DNA from: Acidimicrobiia bacterium
GTDB lineage: Bacteria; Actinomycetota; Acidimicrobiia; Spongiisociales; ZC4RG35
Length of the DNA: 64,000 bases
Assembly (NCBI GenBank): GCA_036380875.1
Contig: DASVDX010000086.1
Coordinates: 20,974 to 84,973 of the forward strand
Direction of reading: 5' to 3'
The notes beneath the pieces were generated by a model. The model did no database searches, was not told where the DNA came from, and worked only from the letters and a program-made list of their open reading frames with translations. The translations under genes were made by a program, and so were the position numbers. Positions 14,052 through 31,238 of the stretch are shown piece by piece (positions within the stretch are counted from its first letter, which is position 1; each line of letters opens with the position of its first letter).

Positions 14052-14714
14052 CTATGGGGCAGTGCTGTGTGCGTCAAAGATAGCCCGTCCCACACGTATA
14101 ACGGTGGCACCCTCTTCCACCGCCACCTCGAAGTCGTCGGTCATTCCCATCGACAAGCCGACCGCTTCCGGCACTCTCGCTGCCACCAGGTCGCGGACCT
14201 CGACCATGCGTTTGAAGAACGGCCGGGCGTCCTCGGGATCGTCGACGATCGGGAGGATGGCCATCACTCCGATGATGGGGATGCCCAGCCCGGAGAAGGC
14301 CACGGCCGCCTCTATGGCGTCTTCGGGGTCGACCCCGGATTTCTGCGGCTCCCTTCCGATGTTGACCTGGAGGTAAGCCGGCGGGGGCGCCCCGGCGCCC
14401 TTCAGCCAGGCGAGAGCCAGCGACTCGCGATCCAAGGAGTGCAGCACGGAGGCGATGGGCCGGACCACCCTCGCCTTGTTGGACTGCAGGTGGCCGACGA
14501 AATGCCAGCGGATGTCGGACGGCAGCTGGGCGGCCTTGGCCTGGAGCTCGTCGGCCCGGTTCTCGCCGAAGTCGCGGTGACCGGCTTCGTAGAGGGCGGC
14601 TATGGCTTCCGGCGGCTGGCCCTTGCTCACCGCCACGACCGTCACCTCCTCCGGCCGGCGACCGACACGCTCGCATGCGGCAGCGACTCTCTCGAGCACC
14701 GACTGGAGGCTCAT
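14052..14714 (-). CDS. yggS: YggS-family pyridoxal-phosphate homeostasis protein (alanine racemase N-terminal fold)
   Basis: PLP-lysine context VAVSKGQP and conserved [10 protein letters not shown]. Start at MSLQSV inside the track ORF 14052..14870. Confidence 0.85.
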
Positions 14715-15319
14715 GGCACCCACCCCAGCGCTGCCATCCGCGCCGTCGTGCCTGTGCGGCGATGACTGAACCCTCCGCCGCAAGCGGTGCAGCGGTCGTC
14801 GATCCACACGTCCATGCCGCGCAGGCGCCGGGCAGCGGCGGCCCGCAAGTCGACCGAGCGGGTGCCCCAAGTCGTGGACGACACATCCTCACGGAAGACT
14901 TCGGCCACTTCGTCGCCGACCTCGAAGCAGCAGGGGCCGATGCCAGGACCGACCTCGGCTCGGGTCGGCGCCGCACCTGCCTTCTCCATGAGACTGATCG
15001 TGCTGTCGAGGACTCCCGCCGCCAGGCCGCGCCATCCGGCGTGGGCCACCCCCACAGTCCCGGGTCCGTGGAGGACGACGCCGAGACAGTCGGCGGTGAA
15101 CACAGCCAGCGGCAGGTTCGGAACCGTGGTCACGAGAGCATCACCTTCTCCCGCCTCACCGGGGCGATCCACCTCAATCGCGATAGGCCCGTGGACCTGA
15201 TTCACGGTCGCCCATTCGTCGGGGATCCCCAGACGGGCGGACACCCGCCGACGCACCTCCGGGTCGTGGCGGGCGTCGCCGTCGGTAGGCGAGGTGAACG
15301 CCACCCCGTCGAGGGTCAT
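14711..15319 (-). CDS. pgeF: YfiH/PgeF-family purine nucleoside phosphorylase / peptidoglycan editing factor (laccase-domain protein)
   Basis: DUF152 fold with the [10 protein letters not shown]...HAGWRG catalytic His/Cys pattern. Conserved position between ftsZ and yggS. Confidence 0.8.
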
Positions 15320-16488: not shown

Positions 16489-17295
16489 TTAGGGTTGCTT
16501 GGTCTGGGTGGTGTCGCCGCCTTCGGCGTCGTCGGTCGGTTCCTGGGAAGACTCCTCCCCCGCTCCGGGTGGCAAAACAGCCGGATTCGCCGGTGCCATC
16601 ACCGTGAGTATCGACCCTTCCTCCACCCCTCGATCGAGGATGGCGGCTGTCACCCGGGCCTTTTCCGCCCCGTCGAATGGACGGCCGATCCGGACCATGA
16701 ATCCCGCCACGGTCCCTTCGAGACCTTCCTCCCCCATTGTCACGATCGCACCTTCCCGGTATTGATCGGGCAGCGCCGCCAGATATTCGATCGCTCCCAC
16801 CACATCCAGATTCCCCTCAGCGTCCTCCGAAGTGAGGTGGGTGAAATCCGCCAATGGCAGGGCTTCAGGGCGTTGCTCGACCGCGTCCAGCAAAACGGAG
16901 TCGGCGGCGGCCAGCCACCATCCGTCGGCGAGGCGGATCCCGACAGCCGGAGTGCGTTCGGTGATCTCGACGAGGACGGTCGTGGGCCAGTCTCGCGCCA
17001 CCGTCGCGTCCGCCACCCAGGGATCCTCCAACAAAGCGTCGCGGGCGCCATCGACGTCGAGCAGGAGCAAGGGACGGCCGGGGTGGATGCCGTGTTGGGC
17101 CAGGACCTTCTCCACGTCGACCCGACGGGCGCCCTCGATGTGGATGTCACCCACCGACATGAACGGCGACTGCATGAACCAGACGATCACCCCGCCGACG
17201 GCGAGGGCGATGAGGAGGCGCATGAGGCGCCCCAGGTTGGAACGAGCCCTGTCTTCCGCCACCCGGCGACGTCGTTCGGCCAGGCGGCGATCCAT
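16489..17295 (-). CDS. ftsQ: Cell division protein FtsQ/DivIB
   Basis: Single TM segment followed by POTRA and FtsQ beta domains. The start could instead be 17307 (MGIEM), which would overlap the murB stop. Confidence 0.75.
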   Translation of the reverse strand: MDRRLAERRRRVAEDRARSNLGRLMRLLIALAVGGVIVWFMQSPFMSVGDIHIEGARRVDVEKVLAQHGIHPGRPLLLLDVDGARDALLEDPWVADATVARDWPTTVLVEITERTPAVGIRLADGWWLAAADSVLLDAVEQRPEALPLADFTHLTSEDAEGNLDVVGAIEYLAALPDQYREGAIVTMGEEGLEGTVAGFMVRIGRPFDGAEKARVTAAILDRGVEEGSILTVMAPANPAVLPPGAGEESSQEPTDDAEGGDTTQTKQP

Positions 17296-17296
17296 C

Positions 17297-18205
17297 TCAA
17301 TCCCCATCCTCGAATCCCACGAACTGGATCTCCGGTTCGAGGTGGATACCCGTCTCTTCCTCCACCCGCCTCTGCACCGCGTCGATGAGGCGGCGCACTG
17401 CCTCGGCAGAGGCACCGGCTTCCGCCTCGATGAAGTTGGCGTGGCGGGGCGAGACCCGCACCGGTCCGAGGGCGAACCCTTTCAACCCGAGGCGGTCGAT
17501 GATGGCTCCGGCCGCCTCGCCCGGCGGGTTCTTGAAGACCGACCCGGCGTTCAGTGTGCCGCCCGGCTGATGTTCCTTCCGCCACCGGGTGATCCTGCGC
17601 ATCTCGGCCGCCGCCTTCTCGGGCTCCACGGACTCGGTGTGGAAGCGAGCGGCGACGACTACGTCGGTGGAGGCGATGGCGGAATGGCGATAACTCAGAT
17701 CGAGGGATGCCGCTGGCACCCAACGGTCGCGGCCGTCGGCGAGGGACACGACCCGGGCCTCGACCAGCACGTCGACCACTTCCCTTCCGAAACAGCCGGC
17801 GTTCTGGCGGACAGCTCCCCCCACCGACCCGGGGATCCCGACTCCCCACTCCAGGCCACCCCGACCTTCGGCGGAAATGCCCCGGGCCACGCGGGGCAGG
17901 GAAGCTGCCCCGCCGGCGTCGACGATGCCCTCCGAGTCGATGCTCGCCTCGGCGAACTCGTTGCCCAACCGGACGACGACCCCGCGGAAACCCTTGTCGG
18001 CGATGAGTAGGTTCGATCCTCGACCCAGCACCAGGACCGGCATCGGCTCGGCTCGCAAGGCCTCCCCGACTTCCTGGAGTGTCTCGATGCGGTCCACCAC
18101 GACGTAGAGGTCGGCGGGCCCGCCCAGCTTGTAGGTGGTCATCGGCGCCAGTTCCACGTGGCGGCGGGCGCGGCCCGAGGAGACGAGGCGCTCCCAACTG
18201 GTCAC
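17297..18205 (-). CDS. murB: UDP-N-acetylenolpyruvoylglucosamine reductase
   Basis: FAD-binding PCMH domain (GGPADLYVVV ... LVLGRGSNLL) and the MurB C-terminal domain. 4-nt overlap with murC. Confidence 0.85.
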   Translation of the reverse strand: MTSWERLVSSGRARRHVELAPMTTYKLGGPADLYVVVDRIETLQEVGEALRAEPMPVLVLGRGSNLLIADKGFRGVVVRLGNEFAEASIDSEGIVDAGGAASLPRVARGISAEGRGGLEWGVGIPGSVGGAVRQNAGCFGREVVDVLVEARVVSLADGRDRWVPAASLDLSYRHSAIASTDVVVAARFHTESVEPEKAAAEMRRITRWRKEHQPGGTLNAGSVFKNPPGEAAGAIIDRLGLKGFALGPVRVSPRHANFIEAEAGASAEAVRRLIDAVQRRVEEETGIHLEPEIQFVGFEDGD

Positions 18206-19578
18206 GCCGGGCCCTCCGCCATCTGCAGCTGGAGCGCCTGGGTGAGCTCGGAGGCGGTGAGGGTGATGTCACCGGCTCCCATGACGACGACCATGTCTCC
18301 CGGTTCGGCGAGTTCCGCCACTCGCGGGGCGACGTCGGCGCGGTGCGGCAGGTACTGGACCCAGGCGGCGCCGGCCCGCCGGGCGGCGGAGGCGACGAGC
18401 TGGCCGGTGACGCCGGGGATGGGGTCCTCGCGAGCGCCGTAGACGTCGGTCACCACCACCCGGTCGGCGAAGGCGAGCGCGGCGCCGAACTCACGGTGCA
18501 GGTCACGGGTGCGGGAGTACAGATGGGGCTGGAACACGGCCCAGAGACGGGTCGGCCTGAACTCGGCCGCTTCCCGCAGAGTGGCTGCGACTTCTGTGGG
18601 ATGGTGGGCGTAGTCGTCGATCACCCGCACGCCGGAGATGGTTCCCTTCGGCTCGAACCGGCGCCTGACCCCGGCGAAGTGCTCCAGACCGGCGGCGGCG
18701 GCTTCCACGTCGTGGCCGAGCTCCCCGAGCAGGGCCAGTGCCCCGGCGGCGTTGCGGGCGAGGTGGAGGCCGGGCCGGGGGAGCTTCACCTGGACTTCGC
18801 CGGTCGGCCCCGCCAAGCGGAAGCGAGACGTGCCGTCGCCGGGGGCGAACCCGCGGATCCGCCAGGTGGCGTCGGGCGAGGTGCCGTAAGTGGCGGCGCC
18901 CACCCGGGCGGCGACGCCGGCCGCCCCGGGGTCGTCGAGGCAAGCGATGACGGGCCCGTCGACGGAACGCGCCACCCGGACGAATGCCTCCTCGAGCTCG
19001 TCCTGGGAACCGAAGTGGTCCATGTGGTCCTGCTCGACATTGGTGACCACGAGGCCGCGGAGCCGGACGTGCTCGAAGGTCCCGAACGCCTCGTCTACTT
19101 CGAGCACGAGCAGGTCGTCGGCTCCGAGGTGGCCGTTGGTCCCGAAGGCGACCAGCTCCCCTCCGACCACGAACGACGGGTCGAGGCCGGCGGCCCGGAT
19201 TCCCGTGACGAGGAGAGCCGTCGTGGTCGTCTTGCCGTGGGTTCCGGTGGGCCCGATCACGGGCCACTTCTCGGTGATCACCTCGAGGAGCTCCGGGCGC
19301 CGCCACACCGGCAAGCCGGCGCGGCGCGCCGCCTCCAGCTCCGGGTCGCGGTCGGGGACCGCCGACGAAGCTACGACGAGATCGGCCTCGCCTATTCGTT
19401 CGGGACGGCTCCCTTCCCACACCTCGATCCCGAGCGCCGACAGGAGGTCGGTCGTCGTTCCGGCTCGCAGGTCCGAGCCGCTGACGCGGTGGCCGCGGCC
19501 GGCGAGGATCTTGGCCAGGGCGCTCATGCCGGCGCCGCCGATACCGACGATGTGGATGCGCTCGGGGAGATCGGTCAT
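18202..19578 (-). CDS. murC: UDP-N-acetylmuramate--L-alanine ligase
   Basis: N-terminal Rossmann motif HIVGIGGAGMSALA and central GTHGKTTTT P-loop. The dcw position also supports MurC. Confidence 0.9.
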   Translation of the reverse strand: MTDLPERIHIVGIGGAGMSALAKILAGRGHRVSGSDLRAGTTTDLLSALGIEVWEGSRPERIGEADLVVASSAVPDRDPELEAARRAGLPVWRRPELLEVITEKWPVIGPTGTHGKTTTTALLVTGIRAAGLDPSFVVGGELVAFGTNGHLGADDLLVLEVDEAFGTFEHVRLRGLVVTNVEQDHMDHFGSQDELEEAFVRVARSVDGPVIACLDDPGAAGVAARVGAATYGTSPDATWRIRGFAPGDGTSRFRLAGPTGEVQVKLPRPGLHLARNAAGALALLGELGHDVEAAAAGLEHFAGVRRRFEPKGTISGVRVIDDYAHHPTEVAATLREAAEFRPTRLWAVFQPHLYSRTRDLHREFGAALAFADRVVVTDVYGAREDPIPGVTGQLVASAARRAGAAWVQYLPHRADVAPRVAELAEPGDMVVVMGAGDITLTASELTQALQLQMAEGPA

Positions 19579-23168: not shown

Positions 23169-24232
23169 CATTGCAGGATCCCTTCGACGGCCAGGAAGTC
23201 CCCGTAGAACAGCCCCAGGCCGAGGGCGACACCCAAGGCGGTCAGGATCCAGAAGCGGATGACGACGGTGGTCTCCGGCCAGCCTTTGAGGTCGAAGTGG
23301 AAATGGATCGGCGCCATGCGGAAGATCCGCTTTCCGGTCAGCCGGAAGCTCGCCACCTGCAGCATCACCGACAGGGTCTCGGCGACGAAGATCCCGCCGA
23401 CGATCACCAACAACAGGTGAGTGTTGGTGAGGAGGGCGAGGGCGGCGAGCAGCCCGCCGATGGCCTGAGAGCCGACATCTCCCATGAAGATCCTCGCCGG
23501 CGGTGCGTTCCACCACAGGAAACCGAGGAGGGCGGCGAACATCGCCGCCGACAAGGTGGCCAGCTCGAGGGGGTCGACGGCCTGGTAGATCCCGGTGGGA
23601 GCGGCGTTGCGGAACTGCCAGAAGGCGATGATCGTGTAGGCGCCGACGACGAGAGCTCCGGAGCCACTGGCGAGGCCGTCCATCCCGTCGGCCAGGTTCA
23701 CACCGTTGGCGGCGCCCGTCAGCATGATCAGGACCCAGATGAAGAAGAAGGCGCCGAGGTCGATGCCGAGCGGCCGCACGAACGACACCTCGGTCACGAC
23801 GTCGGCGGCGGACGCTCCCGCTGCGAAGAGGATGGCGATGACGAGCTGGGCGGCGAACTTGGCCCCCTTGCTCAGCCCCAGGGACCGCCGGTTGGTGAAC
23901 TTGATGTAGTCGTCCACGAAGCCGACGATCGCCATCCCGACCAGTGCCATCCCCGCCAAGAGCCCGCCGGCGCCGAACGGGACCAGCTGGAAGGAGAACC
24001 CGGTAGACGGGGTCCACACGCGTACGTGGGCCATCACGTAGCCGATCAGACAGGCGAGGACGAAGACGACCCCGCCCATGGTCGGAGTCCCCTGCTTGTG
24101 AGCGTGTTGGCGCTGGATGTCGTCCTGGATGAACTGGCCGATTTGACGGCGGCGCAGGAGGCGGATGGCATAGGGGGTGCCGAAGATCGACACGAGCAAC
24201 GAAACGGCGGCGCCGATCAGAAGCGAGATCAC
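23168..24232 (-). CDS. mraY: Phospho-N-acetylmuramoyl-pentapeptide transferase
   Basis: 10 TM segments. DD and NxxNxxDGxDGL motifs. C-terminal HHFDLKGW. Confidence 0.95.
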   Translation of the reverse strand: MISLLIGAAVSLLVSIFGTPYAIRLLRRRQIGQFIQDDIQRQHAHKQGTPTMGGVVFVLACLIGYVMAHVRVWTPSTGFSFQLVPFGAGGLLAGMALVGMAIVGFVDDYIKFTNRRSLGLSKGAKFAAQLVIAILFAAGASAADVVTEVSFVRPLGIDLGAFFFIWVLIMLTGAANGVNLADGMDGLASGSGALVVGAYTIIAFWQFRNAAPTGIYQAVDPLELATLSAAMFAALLGFLWWNAPPARIFMGDVGSQAIGGLLAALALLTNTHLLLVIVGGIFVAETLSVMLQVASFRLTGKRIFRMAPIHFHFDLKGWPETTVVIRFWILTALGVALGLGLFYGDFLAVEGILQ

Positions 24233-25716
24233 GGGGCCATCCTCCCCTGCTCGATGAGCGCCTCTCGGGCGACCAGGCGGTCGTCGAAGGGCAGGATGCG
24301 GCCCTGGACCTCCTGGCCCCGCTCGTGGCCCCGCCCGAGGATCAAGACGACGTCGCCGTCGCGGGCCAGCTCGATGGCGGCGGCGATCGCCTCCCGCCGA
24401 TCCACGATGCGACGCACTCGCTCCGTGTCATCGATGCCGGAGACCACCTCGTCGATGATCACCTCCGGGGGCTCGCTGCGCGGGTTGTCGGAGGTGACGA
24501 TCACCTCGTCGGCGGCCATCGCCTCCCGCCCCATGTGCGGGCGCTTGGCCCGGTCCCGGTCGCCGCCGGCCCCGAACACGACGATCAGCCGGCGGCTGCC
24601 GCCGTCGGACACCCACTCCCCTTGCCCGGTGCGGCGCACCGAGGCGATGGCGTTGGCGATGCTCGCTGGAGTGTGGGCGTAGTCGACGAGGACCGTCACC
24701 GGGGCGTCTCCCGAGACGACCTCGAACCTGCCGGGCACCCCTCGGAACTGCCTGAGTCCGGCGGCGATCGCCTCCAGGGGGATCCCGAGGGACAACGCAC
24801 AAGCGGCAGCGATCAAGGCGTTGTCGATGTTGAAATCCCCGCCCAGAGGCAGCTCGATGTCCACTTCCCCTTCGGAGGTGACCATCACGAACGAGGACCC
24901 GTCGACTCCCACGCTCCGGTCGCGGGCCATCACGTCGGCGTCGGTCCCGACCGTGAGGTACGGGATCGTCATCGAGCGAGTGAGACGCTCCCCGGCCGGG
25001 TCGTCGATCCACACGACCGCCCGCTCGGACAGGTCGGGCTCGAACAGACGGGCCTTGGCGGAGAAGTAACTCTCCATGTCGCCGTGAAAGTCGAGATGGT
25101 CCTGGGAGAGGTTGGTGAATGCGGCCACGGCGAACCTCGCCGCATCGACTCGATGCATGGCGAGGGCGTGGGACGACACCTCGGAGGACACGATCTCGGC
25201 TCCCATTCGCACCATGGTGGCGAGCAGGCGCTGGAAATCGGTAGCTTCGGGGGTGGTGCGGGTGTTGGGGATGCTCGTGGCGCCCACCCGGGTGTGGACG
25301 GTGCCGATCAGCCCCACCTTGCGGCCGGAGGCGATCCCGATCGACTCGACCATGTGGGTCACGGTCGTCTTCCCGTTCGTGCCGGTGACACCCACCAGGG
25401 CGAGGCGGCGGCTCGGATGGCCATGGACCTCCGCCGCCACCGGGCCCATCGCCTCCCGCACGTCTTCGACGAGGAGTTGGGTGGCTTCCGTGGGGCACTC
25501 CCGTTGCACCAGCACCGCCGGGCTGCCGGCCGACACCGCCGCCTCGACGAAATCGTGGCCGTCGACCCGGCTGCCGACCACCGCGGCGAACATCGTCCCC
25601 GGCCCGGCTTGGCGGCTGTCGTGGGTGACGTCGCGGACGGTCACGGTGGGATCGCCGAGGACCCGGCCCCCGACCACCTCGGCCAGTTCGGCGACGGAGC
25701 TATTCCTCGAGGCCAT
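24229..25716 (-). CDS. murE: UDP-N-acetylmuramoyl-L-alanyl-D-glutamate--2,6-diaminopimelate ligase
   Basis: Aligns along its length with E. coli MurE. Shared motifs: LVGVTGTNGKTT, SSHALAMHRV...FTNLSQDHLDFHG, and the mDAP-specifying DNPR motif (VTSDNPRSEPP). 4-nt overlap with mraY. Confidence 0.9.
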   Translation of the reverse strand: MASRNSSVAELAEVVGGRVLGDPTVTVRDVTHDSRQAGPGTMFAAVVGSRVDGHDFVEAAVSAGSPAVLVQRECPTEATQLLVEDVREAMGPVAAEVHGHPSRRLALVGVTGTNGKTTVTHMVESIGIASGRKVGLIGTVHTRVGATSIPNTRTTPEATDFQRLLATMVRMGAEIVSSEVSSHALAMHRVDAARFAVAAFTNLSQDHLDFHGDMESYFSAKARLFEPDLSERAVVWIDDPAGERLTRSMTIPYLTVGTDADVMARDRSVGVDGSSFVMVTSEGEVDIELPLGGDFNIDNALIAAACALSLGIPLEAIAAGLRQFRGVPGRFEVVSGDAPVTVLVDYAHTPASIANAIASVRRTGQGEWVSDGGSRRLIVVFGAGGDRDRAKRPHMGREAMAADEVIVTSDNPRSEPPEVIIDEVVSGIDDTERVRRIVDRREAIAAAIELARDGDVVLILGRGHERGQEVQGRILPFDDRLVAREALIEQGRMAP

Positions 25717-27874: not shown

Positions 27875-28830
27875 GAGGCCTTCCTCTCGAGCTTCTCCGC
27901 TGCACGCAACCTGGCCGACCGGGCTCGGGGATTCCGCTCGACTTCCTCGGGCGAAGGTTCGATCGGGCGGCGGGTGAGGATTCGCAGCTCGGATGCCTCC
28001 CCGCACACGCAGACGGGAAGGTCGGGCGGGCACACGCAGCCGCCCGCACCGAGTGCGAAGCGGCGCTTGACGATGCGGTCCTCCAGGGAGTGGTAGGAGA
28101 TGACGGCGCACCGCCCGCCGGGGGCGAGCACCTCGAGGGCCTGATCGAGCCCGGTGCGCAGCGCCTCCAACTCCTGGTTGACGGCGATCCGCAGCGCCTG
28201 GAATGTTCGCCTGGCGGGATGGCCCTTGCGGCGGGCGGCGTGCGGCACGGCCGACGCCACGACCTCGGCGAGCTGCGTGGTGGTTCGGATGGGCCGGTTG
28301 GCGACGATGGCATCGGCGATGCGGTTGGCGTACCGCTCCTCGCCGTAGCGGCGGATCACGGCCGCGAGTTGGCGGCGGTCCCACGTGTTGACGATGTCGG
28401 CCGCCGACCGGGCGGTGTCGGGGCCCATCCGCATGTCGAGGGGACCTTCGTGGCGATACGAAAAACCCCGCGTCGCCTCGTCGAGTTGATGGCTGGACAC
28501 ACCCAGGTCGAAGAGGATTCCGACGGGGGCCTCGACCCCGGCTTCGTCGAGCAGGCGCCCGAGGTCGGCGAAGTTGCCCTGCAGGACGGTGACGTCGGGG
28601 TGGCCGGCGAGGTCGGAATGGGCGAGCGCGTCGGGATCACGGTCGATTCCGACGAATCGTGTTCCTTTCTGCATCTCGTCCATCAATCTCCTCGTGTGCC
28701 CCCCTCCGCCGAACGTGGCGTCGACCACCACGCCGGCGGGGAGGGGCTTGAACACCTCCGCGACCTCGGAAGCGAGGACCGGCTCGTGGTAGCTGTGCTC
28801 CCCCCGATCGGTTCTCGGTCCCTGGGTCAT
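27871..28830 (-). CDS. rsmH: 16S rRNA (cytosine1402-N4)-methyltransferase
   Basis: SAM-binding GVVVDATFGGGGH and the conserved DLGVSSHQLD motif. Start at MTQGPRT. The upstream ATG at 28857 is also possible. Confidence 0.9.
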   Translation of the reverse strand: MTQGPRTDRGEHSYHEPVLASEVAEVFKPLPAGVVVDATFGGGGHTRRLMDEMQKGTRFVGIDRDPDALAHSDLAGHPDVTVLQGNFADLGRLLDEAGVEAPVGILFDLGVSSHQLDEATRGFSYRHEGPLDMRMGPDTARSAADIVNTWDRRQLAAVIRRYGEERYANRIADAIVANRPIRTTTQLAEVVASAVPHAARRKGHPARRTFQALRIAVNQELEALRTGLDQALEVLAPGGRCAVISYHSLEDRIVKRRFALGAGGCVCPPDLPVCVCGEASELRILTRRPIEPSPEEVERNPRARSARLRAAEKLERKAS

Positions 28831-28943
28831 GGTCAGCCCCCCGGGCGCTGGCACCAATAGGAAGCGGGCGGAGTCAGGGGCCTTCCTTTGGTTACCGGGG
28901 GGCTGACCATGAACCAGAGCCAGCCGTTGTCTCGTCGGGGTCG

Positions 28944-29414
28944 TCAGAAGCCGGGTGTCTCCTCGCTCTCGCGGTACAGGGCGTCGGCAGCGGCCTGCTC
29001 CTCCTCGAACGCAGTCACGTCCCAGATCTCGATTCGGTCGAACACGCCGACCACGGCGACCTCGCTGGCGTTGTGGATCCCGGCGTACTCGCGCAGGCGC
29101 GGCTTGATCACGATCCGTCCCTGGGAATCCATCTTCTGGAGGTCGGCCGCGGCGAACTTGGCCCGGATGTCGCGGCGGGTCTCGCGGACCCGGGGGCGCT
29201 GGATCTCCTCTTCTGCCACCTGACGGAACTTGTCTTCGGTGAACACGACGAGGTTCCCGTCCGGGCCCTTGGTGACCACCACGTTGCCGCCTTCCTCCTT
29301 GATGACGGCGCGGAACGGGGCGGGCATCACGACCCGCCCTTTCTCGTCCAACGTGTGGATGTAGTCCCCAAGGAACACTCGTTCGCTCGCATGGTCAGTT
29401 GCTCGTCCTTCCAC
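28944..29414 (-). CDS. mraZ: Transcriptional regulator MraZ
   Basis: Two SpoVT/AbrB-like MraZ repeats with the DxxGR signatures (LDEKGRVVMP and MDSQGRIVIKP). An alternative GTG start at 29378 (VFLGDY) would match the canonical MFLG N-terminus. Confidence 0.85.
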   Translation of the reverse strand: MEGRATDHASERVFLGDYIHTLDEKGRVVMPAPFRAVIKEEGGNVVVTKGPDGNLVVFTEDKFRQVAEEEIQRPRVRETRRDIRAKFAAADLQKMDSQGRIVIKPRLREYAGIHNASEVAVVGVFDRIEIWDVTAFEEEQAAADALYRESEETPGF

Positions 29415-29429
29415 CCCCTGCGGGGTGAG

Positions 29430-29470
29430 TGCGTGCCACTATGCCCCACTTTCCCCCACTTTGTCAACCT
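29430..29470 (-). promoter_or_regulatory. Putative Pmra promoter with three 10-bp-phased GTGG(G) direct repeats (candidate MraZ operator)
   Basis: Minus-strand reading: TTGACA aaGTGGGGgaaaGTGGGGcataGTGGCAcgc. The -35-like TTGACA and a CATAGT -10-like hexamer sit about 18 nt apart. The repeats are spaced like published MraZ operators (GTGG[A/T]G-N4, TGGGN-N5). Confidence 0.5.
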
Positions 29471-29668
29471 ATCCCCCCACAACAAGGGCGCGAGACCCAC
29501 CCAGGGGGGCATCGGAGGACGCGACGAACCGGTCGCGAGTCGTAGGTGGTACGTGGTAGGTCGGCAGAGATCAGGAAGGCGCGACTCGCGACCAACCACC
29601 CAATCCCGGCGAGCGAAGCGAGCCGGCGACGACCGAGAGCTGGCGCCTGCCAGGCGGCAGCTCTCTAA

Positions 29669-30169
29669 TCAGCCGGCGGCTTTGAGATAAGGCTGCCAGG
29701 CCGGGTCGAGTGAGTAGCCGGCGGAGGCGTAGATCCAGGCGTAGTTGCGCGGCGCCTGCGGTTTGACCTGGAGGACGAGTCCCGCCTCTTGGGGCAGGCG
29801 GTCGCCTTTGCGCATGTTGCAGGTCCGACAGCAGGCCACGACGTTCTCCCAGGTGTGCTCACCGCCCCGGGACCGAGGGAGGACGTGGTCGATGCTCTCG
29901 GCCTGACCGCCGCAGTATTGGCAGGTGTACCCGTCCCGTCCGAAGACGGCCCGTCGGGTGACAGGCACGCTGTGGCGGTAGGGCACCTTGACGTAATAGG
30001 TGAGGCGGACGACCGACGGCACGGTGATCGTGGCCTTCTCCGACGACCACGTGATGTCCCGATCGACAACCGAGATCGCCCGGCCACGCATCACTAGGAC
30101 CACTGCCCGTCGACTTGGAACGACCGACAGCGGCTCGTAGGTGGCGTTGAGGACTAGAGCCCTGGCCAT
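29669..30169 (-). CDS. Small HNH endonuclease
   Basis: HNH core CQYCGG...DHVLPRSRGGEHTWENVVACCRTCNMRKG with CxxC zinc ligands. Confidence 0.75.
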   Translation of the reverse strand: MARALVLNATYEPLSVVPSRRAVVLVMRGRAISVVDRDITWSSEKATITVPSVVRLTYYVKVPYRHSVPVTRRAVFGRDGYTCQYCGGQAESIDHVLPRSRGGEHTWENVVACCRTCNMRKGDRLPQEAGLVLQVKPQAPRNYAWIYASAGYSLDPAWQPYLKAAG

Positions 30170-30206
30170 CGGCTACCTATCTTCGTCGGTAGCCGCAGAC
30201 TACCGC

Positions 30207-30950
30207 CTATCGGCGCTTCTGAGCACGCTCTTCGAGCATCTGCGACGCCACTTCCAAGAGTGCGGCCGGCCAGTTGCTCTCCACGACGCTCACCGTCGAG
30301 ACCCGTGGGGTGGTGCCCTCGTTGCCGGCGATCACGGTGAGGACCCGCACTCCTTCGATCGCCGACAGGTTCAGTCCGATGACGCTCATCGGCTCCCGGC
30401 CGGACGTCTCAGAGGCCATGTCGAGCACGGCCTGGACGATCGCCCGCGCCGAACTGGGCACCTGGCGGGTGACCGTCCTCTCGCCTTTGGTGAAGACGAC
30501 CTGGGCGACCGAATGCTCCCCTGCGGGCGTCACGGAGAGCTCGACCCTCTCTCCCGCCGGAGTGATGAGGGCGGCCGAGGCAGTGCCCGAGGAGACGACC
30601 CGCACCGGTGTCGGAGGCACCACGATCTCGGACGGCGACTCGTCGACGTCGAGGATCTCGTGCCGCGGCGGCTCGTCGTGATAGTGCGAGTTGCTCGACG
30701 TGGGCGGTGCCGCCACGCCGGCGGTGGCGAGCACCCGGGGGGACCGGGTGCCGTAGGCGACGAGGAGGCGTCGTACTCCCTCGAGGACGGCCAATTCGTC
30801 GGCGTCGTCGGTGAGCCGGACCGTTATTCCTTCGAGGCCGTCCTCACCCAGCTCCAGTTCGATGCTCTCTACCCCGGGAACCGATTCGAGTCGAGACTTC
30901 AGACCGTTCATCTGCTCCTCCGCTGCACGGCGCGGAGCTGCCGCCGCCAT
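30207..30950 (-). CDS. Hypothetical protein with three internal ~60-aa repeats
   Basis: No recognisable catalytic motif. Repeated G[VI]E.I.L...V.L blocks. The start may be the internal MNGLKS at 30911. Confidence 0.5.
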   Translation of the reverse strand: MAAAAPRRAAEEQMNGLKSRLESVPGVESIELELGEDGLEGITVRLTDDADELAVLEGVRRLLVAYGTRSPRVLATAGVAAPPTSSNSHYHDEPPRHEILDVDESPSEIVVPPTPVRVVSSGTASAALITPAGERVELSVTPAGEHSVAQVVFTKGERTVTRQVPSSARAIVQAVLDMASETSGREPMSVIGLNLSAIEGVRVLTVIAGNEGTTPRVSTVSVVESNWPAALLEVASQMLEERAQKRR

Positions 30951-31238
30951 TCGAGAAAATGTACGAGATCCTCCACCTGGACGGATGCGTCAGGAGCGCC
31001 ATAGGCCGTTGCGATCCGCCAACGGATCAGAGGCCGGGAGGGAAGGATCCCCCGGCGAGAACGAAATGCCCAGGCCGTTCGCAGCGCCTCCGCGGCCAGC
31101 AAGGGACGCGCGGCCAGCTCGACCCATTTCACCTACGCCTCCTTTCGATTGAGCCACCCCGAGGACCATCACCCTACCCCCGGATTGCGATCTGTCGACG
31201 GTAAAGTCGAGGGACGTTCGTCCTATCGGGAGTGAGGT

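Follow-up and report, generated by a model that had tools for sequence, protein, structure and literature searches.

The mraZ gene of an Acidimicrobiia bacterium is very likely transcribed from a promoter of the principal-sigma (sigma-70/sigma-A) type that is combined with an operator for MraZ, the product of the gene itself. The gene lies in a 64-kb window, by which we mean the whole stretch of 64,000 nucleotides that was analyzed. This assignment is based on the sequence of the promoter and of its orthologs. MraZ is among the most widely conserved transcription factors in bacteria. To our knowledge, its operator has been characterized only in a few Proteobacteria, Firmicutes, and Mollicutes.

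The mraZ promoter and its GTGG boxes

The original prediction read the minus strand upstream of mraZ as TTGACA-aa-GTGGGG-gaaa-GTGGGG-cata-GTGGCA, and the string is matched exactly at 29434-29467. The elements drawn from it are also present: a perfect -35 hexamer (TTGACA, read at 29467-29462), a CATAGT -10-like element at 29443-29438, 18 nt past the -35, and repeats spaced one helical turn apart, the boxes starting at 29459, 29449, and 29439 in 10-bp steps (Table 1). The interval given for the feature, 29415-29668, fared less well, as it contains the feature but is about seven times wider than it (29434-29467 plus an auxiliary box at 29475-29480). That interval is the entire intergenic region between an HNH-endonuclease gene and mraZ, measured from the longest open reading frame.

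The hexamers fit the sigma-70/sigma-A pattern of a TTGACA-like and a TAnnnT-like element 16-19 nt apart. TTGACA-18-CATAGT has 10 of 12 matches and is the sole match of a promoter scan in 1.6 kb, where 0.2 were expected. The boxes in turn have the features of an MraZ operator: direct repeats with GTG(G/T) cores and at least three repeats with a 10-bp period (6 nt between 4-nt cores), the only exact triple within the window. They are placed upstream of mraZ at the head of the dcw cluster, with 56 nt from box 3 to the mraZ start. In context the boxes read caAAGTGGGG, gaAAGTGGGG, and cATAGTGGCA, which fit the published core, period, and 5' A-flank. Between the auxiliary box 0 and box 1, the sequence AAAGGTT/ATAGGTT is a degenerate in-register box that merges into the -35. 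Box 0 is presumably bound by MraZ as well, and if it is counted along with the degenerate AAAGGTT unit over the -35, the array may run to five phased units, with the -35 enclosed between them.

Table 1. Features at and around the mraZ promoter (positions in the window)
Feature	Position	Strand	Basis or remark
-35 hexamer TTGACA	29462..29467	minus	sequence, promoter scan, and conservation
MraZ box 1 (candidate), A-GTGGGG	29454..29460, core 29456-29459	minus	in spacer, 2 nt past -35
MraZ box 2 (candidate), A-GTGGGG	29444..29450, core 29446-29449	minus	in promoter spacer
-10 hexamer CATAGT	29438..29443	minus	terminal GT is the first two bases of box 3
MraZ box 3 (candidate), A-GTGGCA	29434..29440, core 29436-29439	minus	overlaps -10 and discriminator
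Auxiliary box 0, GTGGGG	29475..29480	minus	21 bp before box 1, upstream flank of -35
Predicted transcription start site (TSS)	29430..29432	minus	6-8 nt after -10, from promoter geometry alone
mraZ leader stem-loop (5'-proximal), UCACCCC-GCAG-GGGGUGG	29411..29428	minus	3-5 nt after predicted TSS
mraZ coding sequence, 144 aa, GTG start	28944..29378	minus	Pfam PF02381, 7.7e-25; presumed regulator of the boxes
Structured RNA element	28811-28927 (hairpin ~95 nt, 28822-28917)	minus	mraZ stop (28944) to rsmH ATG (28830-28828)
Terminator-like palindrome	29635..29665	minus	directly after HNH stop; 15-nt arms, 93% complementary

GTGGGG alone is without enrichment in this G+C-rich window (53 observed versus 68 expected). 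The 16-base pattern with at most two mismatches is expected 0.23 times per window, and an exact GTGG-N6-GTGG-N6-GTGG 0.04 times. AGTGG-N5-AGTGG, with 0.09 expected, is observed twice in the window, both times at the mraZ promoter. By itself, the array in a single sequence is suggestive and of only moderate weight; the array, its position, and its conservation taken together are far beyond chance. Double boxes elsewhere in the window are at background (3 others versus 3.8 expected in total), and a wider MraZ regulon in the window was rejected.

The gene behind the promoter is mraZ, as had been proposed, with a Pfam PF02381 (MraZ) match. Its true start is GTG 29378 (MFLGDY..., MFLGDYIHTLDEKGR...), which gives the length of the 144-aa database cluster representative P0001, and among relatives the start codon alternates between GTG, ATG, and TTG exactly at MFLG. 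A longer MraZ beginning at GTG 29414 was discarded on account of that cluster representative and start-codon variation, and of a 92%-identical relative (L041) and a sister clade that are without an in-frame upstream start. The mraZ GTG is without a clear Shine-Dalgarno sequence before it. In a phmmer alignment to 9qlr, K13, R15, and R88 of the window MraZ correspond to K13, R15, and R86 of the Mycoplasma genitalium protein; the three residues are invariant in MraZ of the clade. Both DxxxR motifs are present as D11-EKG-R15 and D84-SQG-R88.

Conservation among orthologous mraZ promoters

Orthologous loci came from a scan of reference genomes, which gave four metagenome-assembled genomes (MAGs) of an Acidimicrobiia-type lineage with MraZ identity of 78-92%, and from a metagenome scan, which gave 80 further loci with MraZ identity from 38 to 99%. 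As the loci are mutually related, sequence counts overstate the number of independent events. The original prediction had named conservation of the repeats in orthologous upstream regions as a check, and they are conserved: an exact triple of boxes is present in 62 of 72 distinct loci, at most 200 nt upstream of mraZ and on the coding strand (90 overlapping matches). In the remaining ~385 kb of the same loci, both strands included, there are 0. This count was run unanchored because the anchoring of the promoter alignment favored GTGG.

Across 70 distinct orthologous promoters, both hexamer positions are conserved. TTGACA is retained in 66. The -10 hexamer reads CATAGT in 55; in 70/70 its last two bases are GT, and its second and sixth bases are always A and T. 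The spacer is 17 nt long in 61 promoters and 18 nt in 9; the 18-nt spacer of the window clade has one additional A after the -35. Three GTGG cores are found at offsets 0, 10, and 20 in the same regions. Box 1 has a GTGG or GTGT core in 69/70 relatives, with T at core position 2 in 100%. For box 2, the core columns are 94-100% conserved and the preceding A is present in 65/70; the corresponding values for box 3 are 93-100% and 68/70. Of the 70 relatives, 46 have a [GA]TGG corresponding to box 0 at 19-22 bp before box 1. Columns of the hexamers and box cores carry 1-2.5 bits of information and the flanks from -30 to -22 and from +34 to +45 less than 0.35 bits; therefore, the promoter and boxes form a block preserved against diverged surroundings. 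The -35, the -10, and the boxes are conserved jointly, and thus at the shared GT of the -10 conservation by itself may reflect selection for either the promoter or the operator.

In Planctomycetota, Bacteroidota, Rhodothermia, and Patescibacteria, mraZ is likewise preceded by phased GTGG boxes. A fourth contiguous GTGG box at +30, absent in the window, is present in 37/70 relatives belonging to deeper clades (L076-L119 type, e.g. L089 at ~1430-1500), and loci of this type also have a conserved leader motif, GAUGAUGGAG, before the mraZ ATG.

The first homolog search returned no cultured Actinobacteria, and Mycobacterium proteins were retrieved with a separate probe sequence, which was used for retrieval alone. 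In Mycobacterium koreense and Mycolicibacterium confluentis (L120, L122), a TAnnGT -10 is fused to a GTGG box (GTGGGGAGTTGTGGGGTATTGTGGCGG and AGTGGGGGAGAGTGGGGTATGGTGGCGG), the fusions reading TATTGT-GG and TATGGT-GG. As in the window, the upstream regions have 10-bp phased GTGG boxes and the GT of the -10 opens a box. Unlike in the window, the promoters are without a recognizable TTGACA -35, and M. koreense has a second box cluster, GTGGATGGGGGAGTTGTGGGG (L120 1369-1392), ~55 nt upstream of the main one. Given that these two Mycobacterium-type loci match the Acidimicrobiia-type layout, the fusion of a box to the -10 is, by sequence comparison, apparently phylum-wide in Actinomycetota.

The leaders of mraZ and rsmH and the dcw cluster

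The 5'-proximal stem-loop of the mraZ leader has a predicted energy of -13 kcal/mol (z = -2.3). A hairpin is found at the same place in 8/8 closest relatives with differing arm sequences, and double changes occur in 4 of its 8 pairs. In the stem 87.5% of cells are paired versus 38-52% with a slid partner, a comparison in which the structure was derived from the same sequences. The stem-loop may be a stabilizer of the 5' end. Past it, a conserved stretch, GACGAGCAACUGACCAUGMGAGCGAAC (29381-29407, minus strand), holds an out-of-frame ATG at 29392-29390. The distance from this ATG to the mraZ start is 14, 20, 23, or 26 nt; in 18/18 distinct loci carrying the ATG, it leaves a remainder of 2 on division by 3. 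These spacings hint that it may open a short overlapping upstream ORF (MR[AT][ND][EG]...).

The gene order downstream is that of a dcw cluster, in agreement with the prediction: mraZ is followed by co-directional rsmH, ftsI, a Mur ligase gene, mraY, murD, ftsW, murG, murC, ftsZ, and divIVA. Gene identities, including those of mraZ, rsmH, ftsI, the mur genes, ftsW, and ftsZ, are from Pfam. By its position the promoter would drive the whole cluster; a strong hairpin intervenes between mraZ and rsmH, and internal promoters are possible. A single Mur-ligase gene (24229-25716, minus strand) lies between ftsI and mraY, the place where dcw clusters usually carry both murE and murF. Three ORFs (17187-18272, 14074-14976, and 30207-30950) lack any match in Pfam.

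On the other side of the promoter, the HNH-endonuclease gene ends with a stop codon at 29669. The palindrome directly after it (-25 kcal/mol, z = -3.3) is without a U-tract. Factor-independent terminators without a U-tract are common in high-GC bacteria. The palindrome is probably a terminator of this kind, to judge from its structure, and probably insulates the mraZ promoter (Pmra) from upstream transcription. Its place after the HNH gene is consistent with a separate transcription unit beginning at the mraZ promoter. A further terminator-like match at 29502-29486, with a 5-bp stem and 0.7 expected by chance, was rejected, and two inverted repeats (I2 and I5, 75-83% complementary) were taken as chance. 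A perfect 12-nt inverted repeat (GGTCGCGAGTCG / CGACTCGCGACC, 29531-29593) encloses a 39-nt stretch with TACCAC repeats of 7-nt period, which read as reverse-oriented GTGG on the other strand. It is also found in L002 and is absent from the 92% relative L001. The reverse-oriented CCAC repeats at ~29545-29565 were rejected as MraZ sites, as their 7-bp period misfits the geometry and they are absent from L001. A search of 28000-31000 against Rfam at E <= 1 gave no credible known RNA, the whole window gave none at the gathering threshold, and a tRNA search found none.

The spacer between mraZ and rsmH encodes a structured RNA element whose hairpin (28822-28917) has 23-nt arms that are 96% complementary, with a local fold of about -69 kcal/mol. 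The 3' arm holds the Shine-Dalgarno-like GGGGGG run and the ATG of rsmH. Within the element there are an inner hairpin and an invariant loop, CCCCUKACUCCGCCCGCUUCC, the core of which is present in 74/120 loci and is invariably encoded on the same strand as mraZ. For 57 distinct sequences, RNAalifold predicted 30 pairs, 10 of them with compensatory double changes (e.g. UA/CG at 36:21 and GC/AU at 29:28).

In location the element agrees with the Rfam mraW motif, RF01746, which is defined by the mraZ-mraW (rsmH) spacer. The RF01746 model had no match to the element even at E <= 10, and at its gathering threshold (50 bits) it found none in 20 related loci or in the whole window; as a positive control, Mycobacterium loci scored 72 and 80 bits. 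A covariance model built from the element (R1) found one copy in the window (114.5 bits) and weak same-place matches of 26-27 bits in an Actinomycetes MAG and an Acidimicrobiales MAG, with no match in the Mycobacterium loci and other phyla. The Mycobacterium loci carry RF01746 in this spacer in place of the window element. From the covariation and the mutual non-detection by RF01746 and R1, the element looks like an undescribed rsmH leader motif, absent from Rfam 15, that would sequester the start site. The function of RF01746 has itself been described as unknown (PMC5640933).

The 23-bp stem is a plausible RNase III site. The base of 16S rRNA methylated by RsmH is C1402. The loop (CUCCGCCCG) appears to resemble 16S rRNA 1397-1405 around C1402 (CACCGCCCG), the complement of the universal 1392R primer. 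From this likeness, it might be supposed, very speculatively and as pure inference, that RsmH binds its own leader as a substrate mimic, autoregulating translation. We consider unlikely a reading in which the hairpin is a second tier of layered control at the head of the dcw cluster after the operator. In that reading it would belong to a new class of cis-regulatory RNA standing in for Rfam mraW in the window lineage, with the ribosome-binding site and AUG of rsmH held in the 23-bp stem and with RsmH binding it as a substrate mimic.

Likeness to known MraZ operators and probable mode of regulation

The geometry of the window boxes is that of published MraZ boxes, as the original prediction held: GTG(G/T) cores with 6-nt spacers (PMC12957436), and in B. 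subtilis GTGG[A/T]G-N4 three times (bioRxiv 10.1101/2022.02.09.479790). MraZ operators are GTG(G/T) direct repeats 6 nt apart, mostly of three boxes, with four in some mycoplasmas; one MraZ subunit contacts each box through Lys13, Arg15, and Arg86 in the major groove, and the subunits bind cooperatively (PMC12957436). The Mollicutes site has also been given as AAAGTG[T/G] repeats (Fisunov 2016, as cited in PMC8475190). Repression by MraZ has been reported for E. coli, B. subtilis, and M. genitalium (PMC12957436, PMC8475190, bioRxiv 10.1101/2022.02.09.479790, PMC7761207). The sign of regulation is not universal for MraZ because in M. gallisepticum its overproduction raised FtsZ and dcw expression, according to the citation in PMC8475190. 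For Actinobacteria, repression by MraZ of its own operon has been called unresolved with regard to C. glutamicum (bioRxiv 10.1101/2022.02.09.479790).

The layout resembles that of B. subtilis, where the MraZ-binding repeats (MBRs) in Pmra are, as in the window, three direct repeats upstream of mraZ with 4-nt spacers and a 10-bp period; R15 and R86 are needed for repression there (bioRxiv 10.1101/2022.02.09.479790). They are the only triple repeat in that genome (bioRxiv 10.1101/2022.02.09.479790), as the window boxes are the only exact triple in the window. Like the window boxes they lie in the -35/-10 region, since swapping that region removed them (bioRxiv 10.1101/2022.02.09.479790). In the window, the sixth box base is G, C, or A rather than A or T, and there is an extra box upstream of the -35. 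The fusion of box 3 to the -10 is documented by conservation in the window lineage, where the operator is predicted from sequence.

The four-box operator of M. genitalium shares with the window the GTG(G/T) core, the 6-nt spacer, and an A-rich 5' flank (AAAGTGG in window boxes 1 and 2). By cryo-EM it is bound cooperatively with one subunit per box, the reading residues being K13/R15/R86 as against K13/R15/R88 in the window (PMC12957436). The M. genitalium boxes are contiguous and the TSS falls inside box 1 (PMC12957436), whereas the window has three contiguous boxes from the -35 to just past the -10, plus one detached. E. coli and Burkholderia cenocepacia likewise have phased direct repeats with a GTG/TGGG core in Pmra at the head of dcw; MraZ binding has been shown by EMSA, and autorepression has been shown in E. 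coli (Eraso 2014 as cited; PMC7761207). The proteobacterial repeats are found past the -10, over the TSS (PMC7761207), in contrast to the window boxes in the spacer and over the -10. The window placement suggests that MraZ would keep polymerase from binding instead of blocking it at the start site or beyond.

Repression specifically, by MraZ at the mraZ promoter, we regard as likely on these grounds, with less confidence than the combination of promoter and operator. Three AGTGG(G) boxes of 10-bp period lie on one helix face, with boxes 1 and 2 filling the -35/-10 spacer. Box 3 shares with the end of the -10 its GT, including the critical T at -7, which MraZ and sigma would contest. Box 0 is a fourth, auxiliary box two turns upstream on the far side of the -35. 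MraZ, encoded directly downstream with its GTG(G/T)-reading residues, would occupy neighboring boxes cooperatively, its ring oligomer opened and one subunit set on each box. Bound MraZ would mask the spacer together with the -10 and so keep RNA polymerase off, and the outcome would be negative autoregulation of mraZ and its co-transcribed genes (rsmH, ftsL, ftsI, mur genes, etc.). At the window promoter we infer MraZ binding, the TSS, repression as opposed to activation, and transcript length.

Could MraZ instead activate through these boxes? It might re-phase an over-long 18-bp spacer in the manner of MerR or recruit polymerase from box 0. The 18-nt spacer of the window clade is indeed sub-optimal, box 0 sits upstream of the -35 where class I/II activators sit, and the M. 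gallisepticum overproduction result cited in PMC8475190 points the same way. However, 61/70 relatives have an optimal 17-nt spacer with the same boxes, so that the spacer needs no correcting; box 3 lies over bases of the -10 that sigma has to flip out; and the boxes are direct repeats and not a dyad. As MraZ also represses in E. coli, B. subtilis, and M. genitalium (PMC8475190, PMC12957436, bioRxiv 10.1101/2022.02.09.479790), we think activation quite improbable. That the boxes are bound by another protein with a taste for G-rich direct repeats, of the AbrB/SpoVT fold or a nucleoid protein, while MraZ acts elsewhere, is very unlikely in our judgment. C. glutamicum MraZ has been reported, in the summary given in bioRxiv 10.1101/2022.02.09.479790, to act on ftsEX, yet the array accompanies mraZ in every phylum sampled and is nowhere else in ~385 kb. 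Moreover, its core, period, and preceding A match boxes with solved MraZ contacts (PMC12957436), and the reading residues of MraZ are conserved.

The repeats might also be intrinsic to the promoter, as a G-rich spacer and discriminator for polymerase with CarD/RbpA, or form a G-quadruplex tract. There are G-runs in the window (GGGGGG, GGGGG, and GGGG), and boxes and promoter elements are conserved as a single block. The conserved unit is nevertheless A-GTGG, with its T at 100%, and not the G-runs, which are unconserved; on this ground the G-quadruplex reading was rejected. Box positions 5-6 vary freely (GTGGCG, GTGGCA, GTGTCA), and G-quadruplex potential is thereby destroyed in most relatives. 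In other phyla, phased GTGG arrays lie downstream of or apart from the -10 (PMC7761207), so that they are independent of promoter position. A promoter-intrinsic origin thus seems to us hardly credible, and a promoter combined with an MraZ operator is the reading that we retain.

Acidimicrobiia-type lineages and mycobacteria have one architecture in common, in which boxes occupy the spacer and the final one merges with the -10. This shared architecture predicts that MraZ and sigma compete directly for the same bases. What seems modestly new, by comparison of sequences, is one operator and promoter design common across Actinomycetota, the type of switch itself being already known. While the general picture of MraZ is unchanged, the array provides a concrete candidate operator for the control of cell division in Actinobacteria, mycobacteria included.
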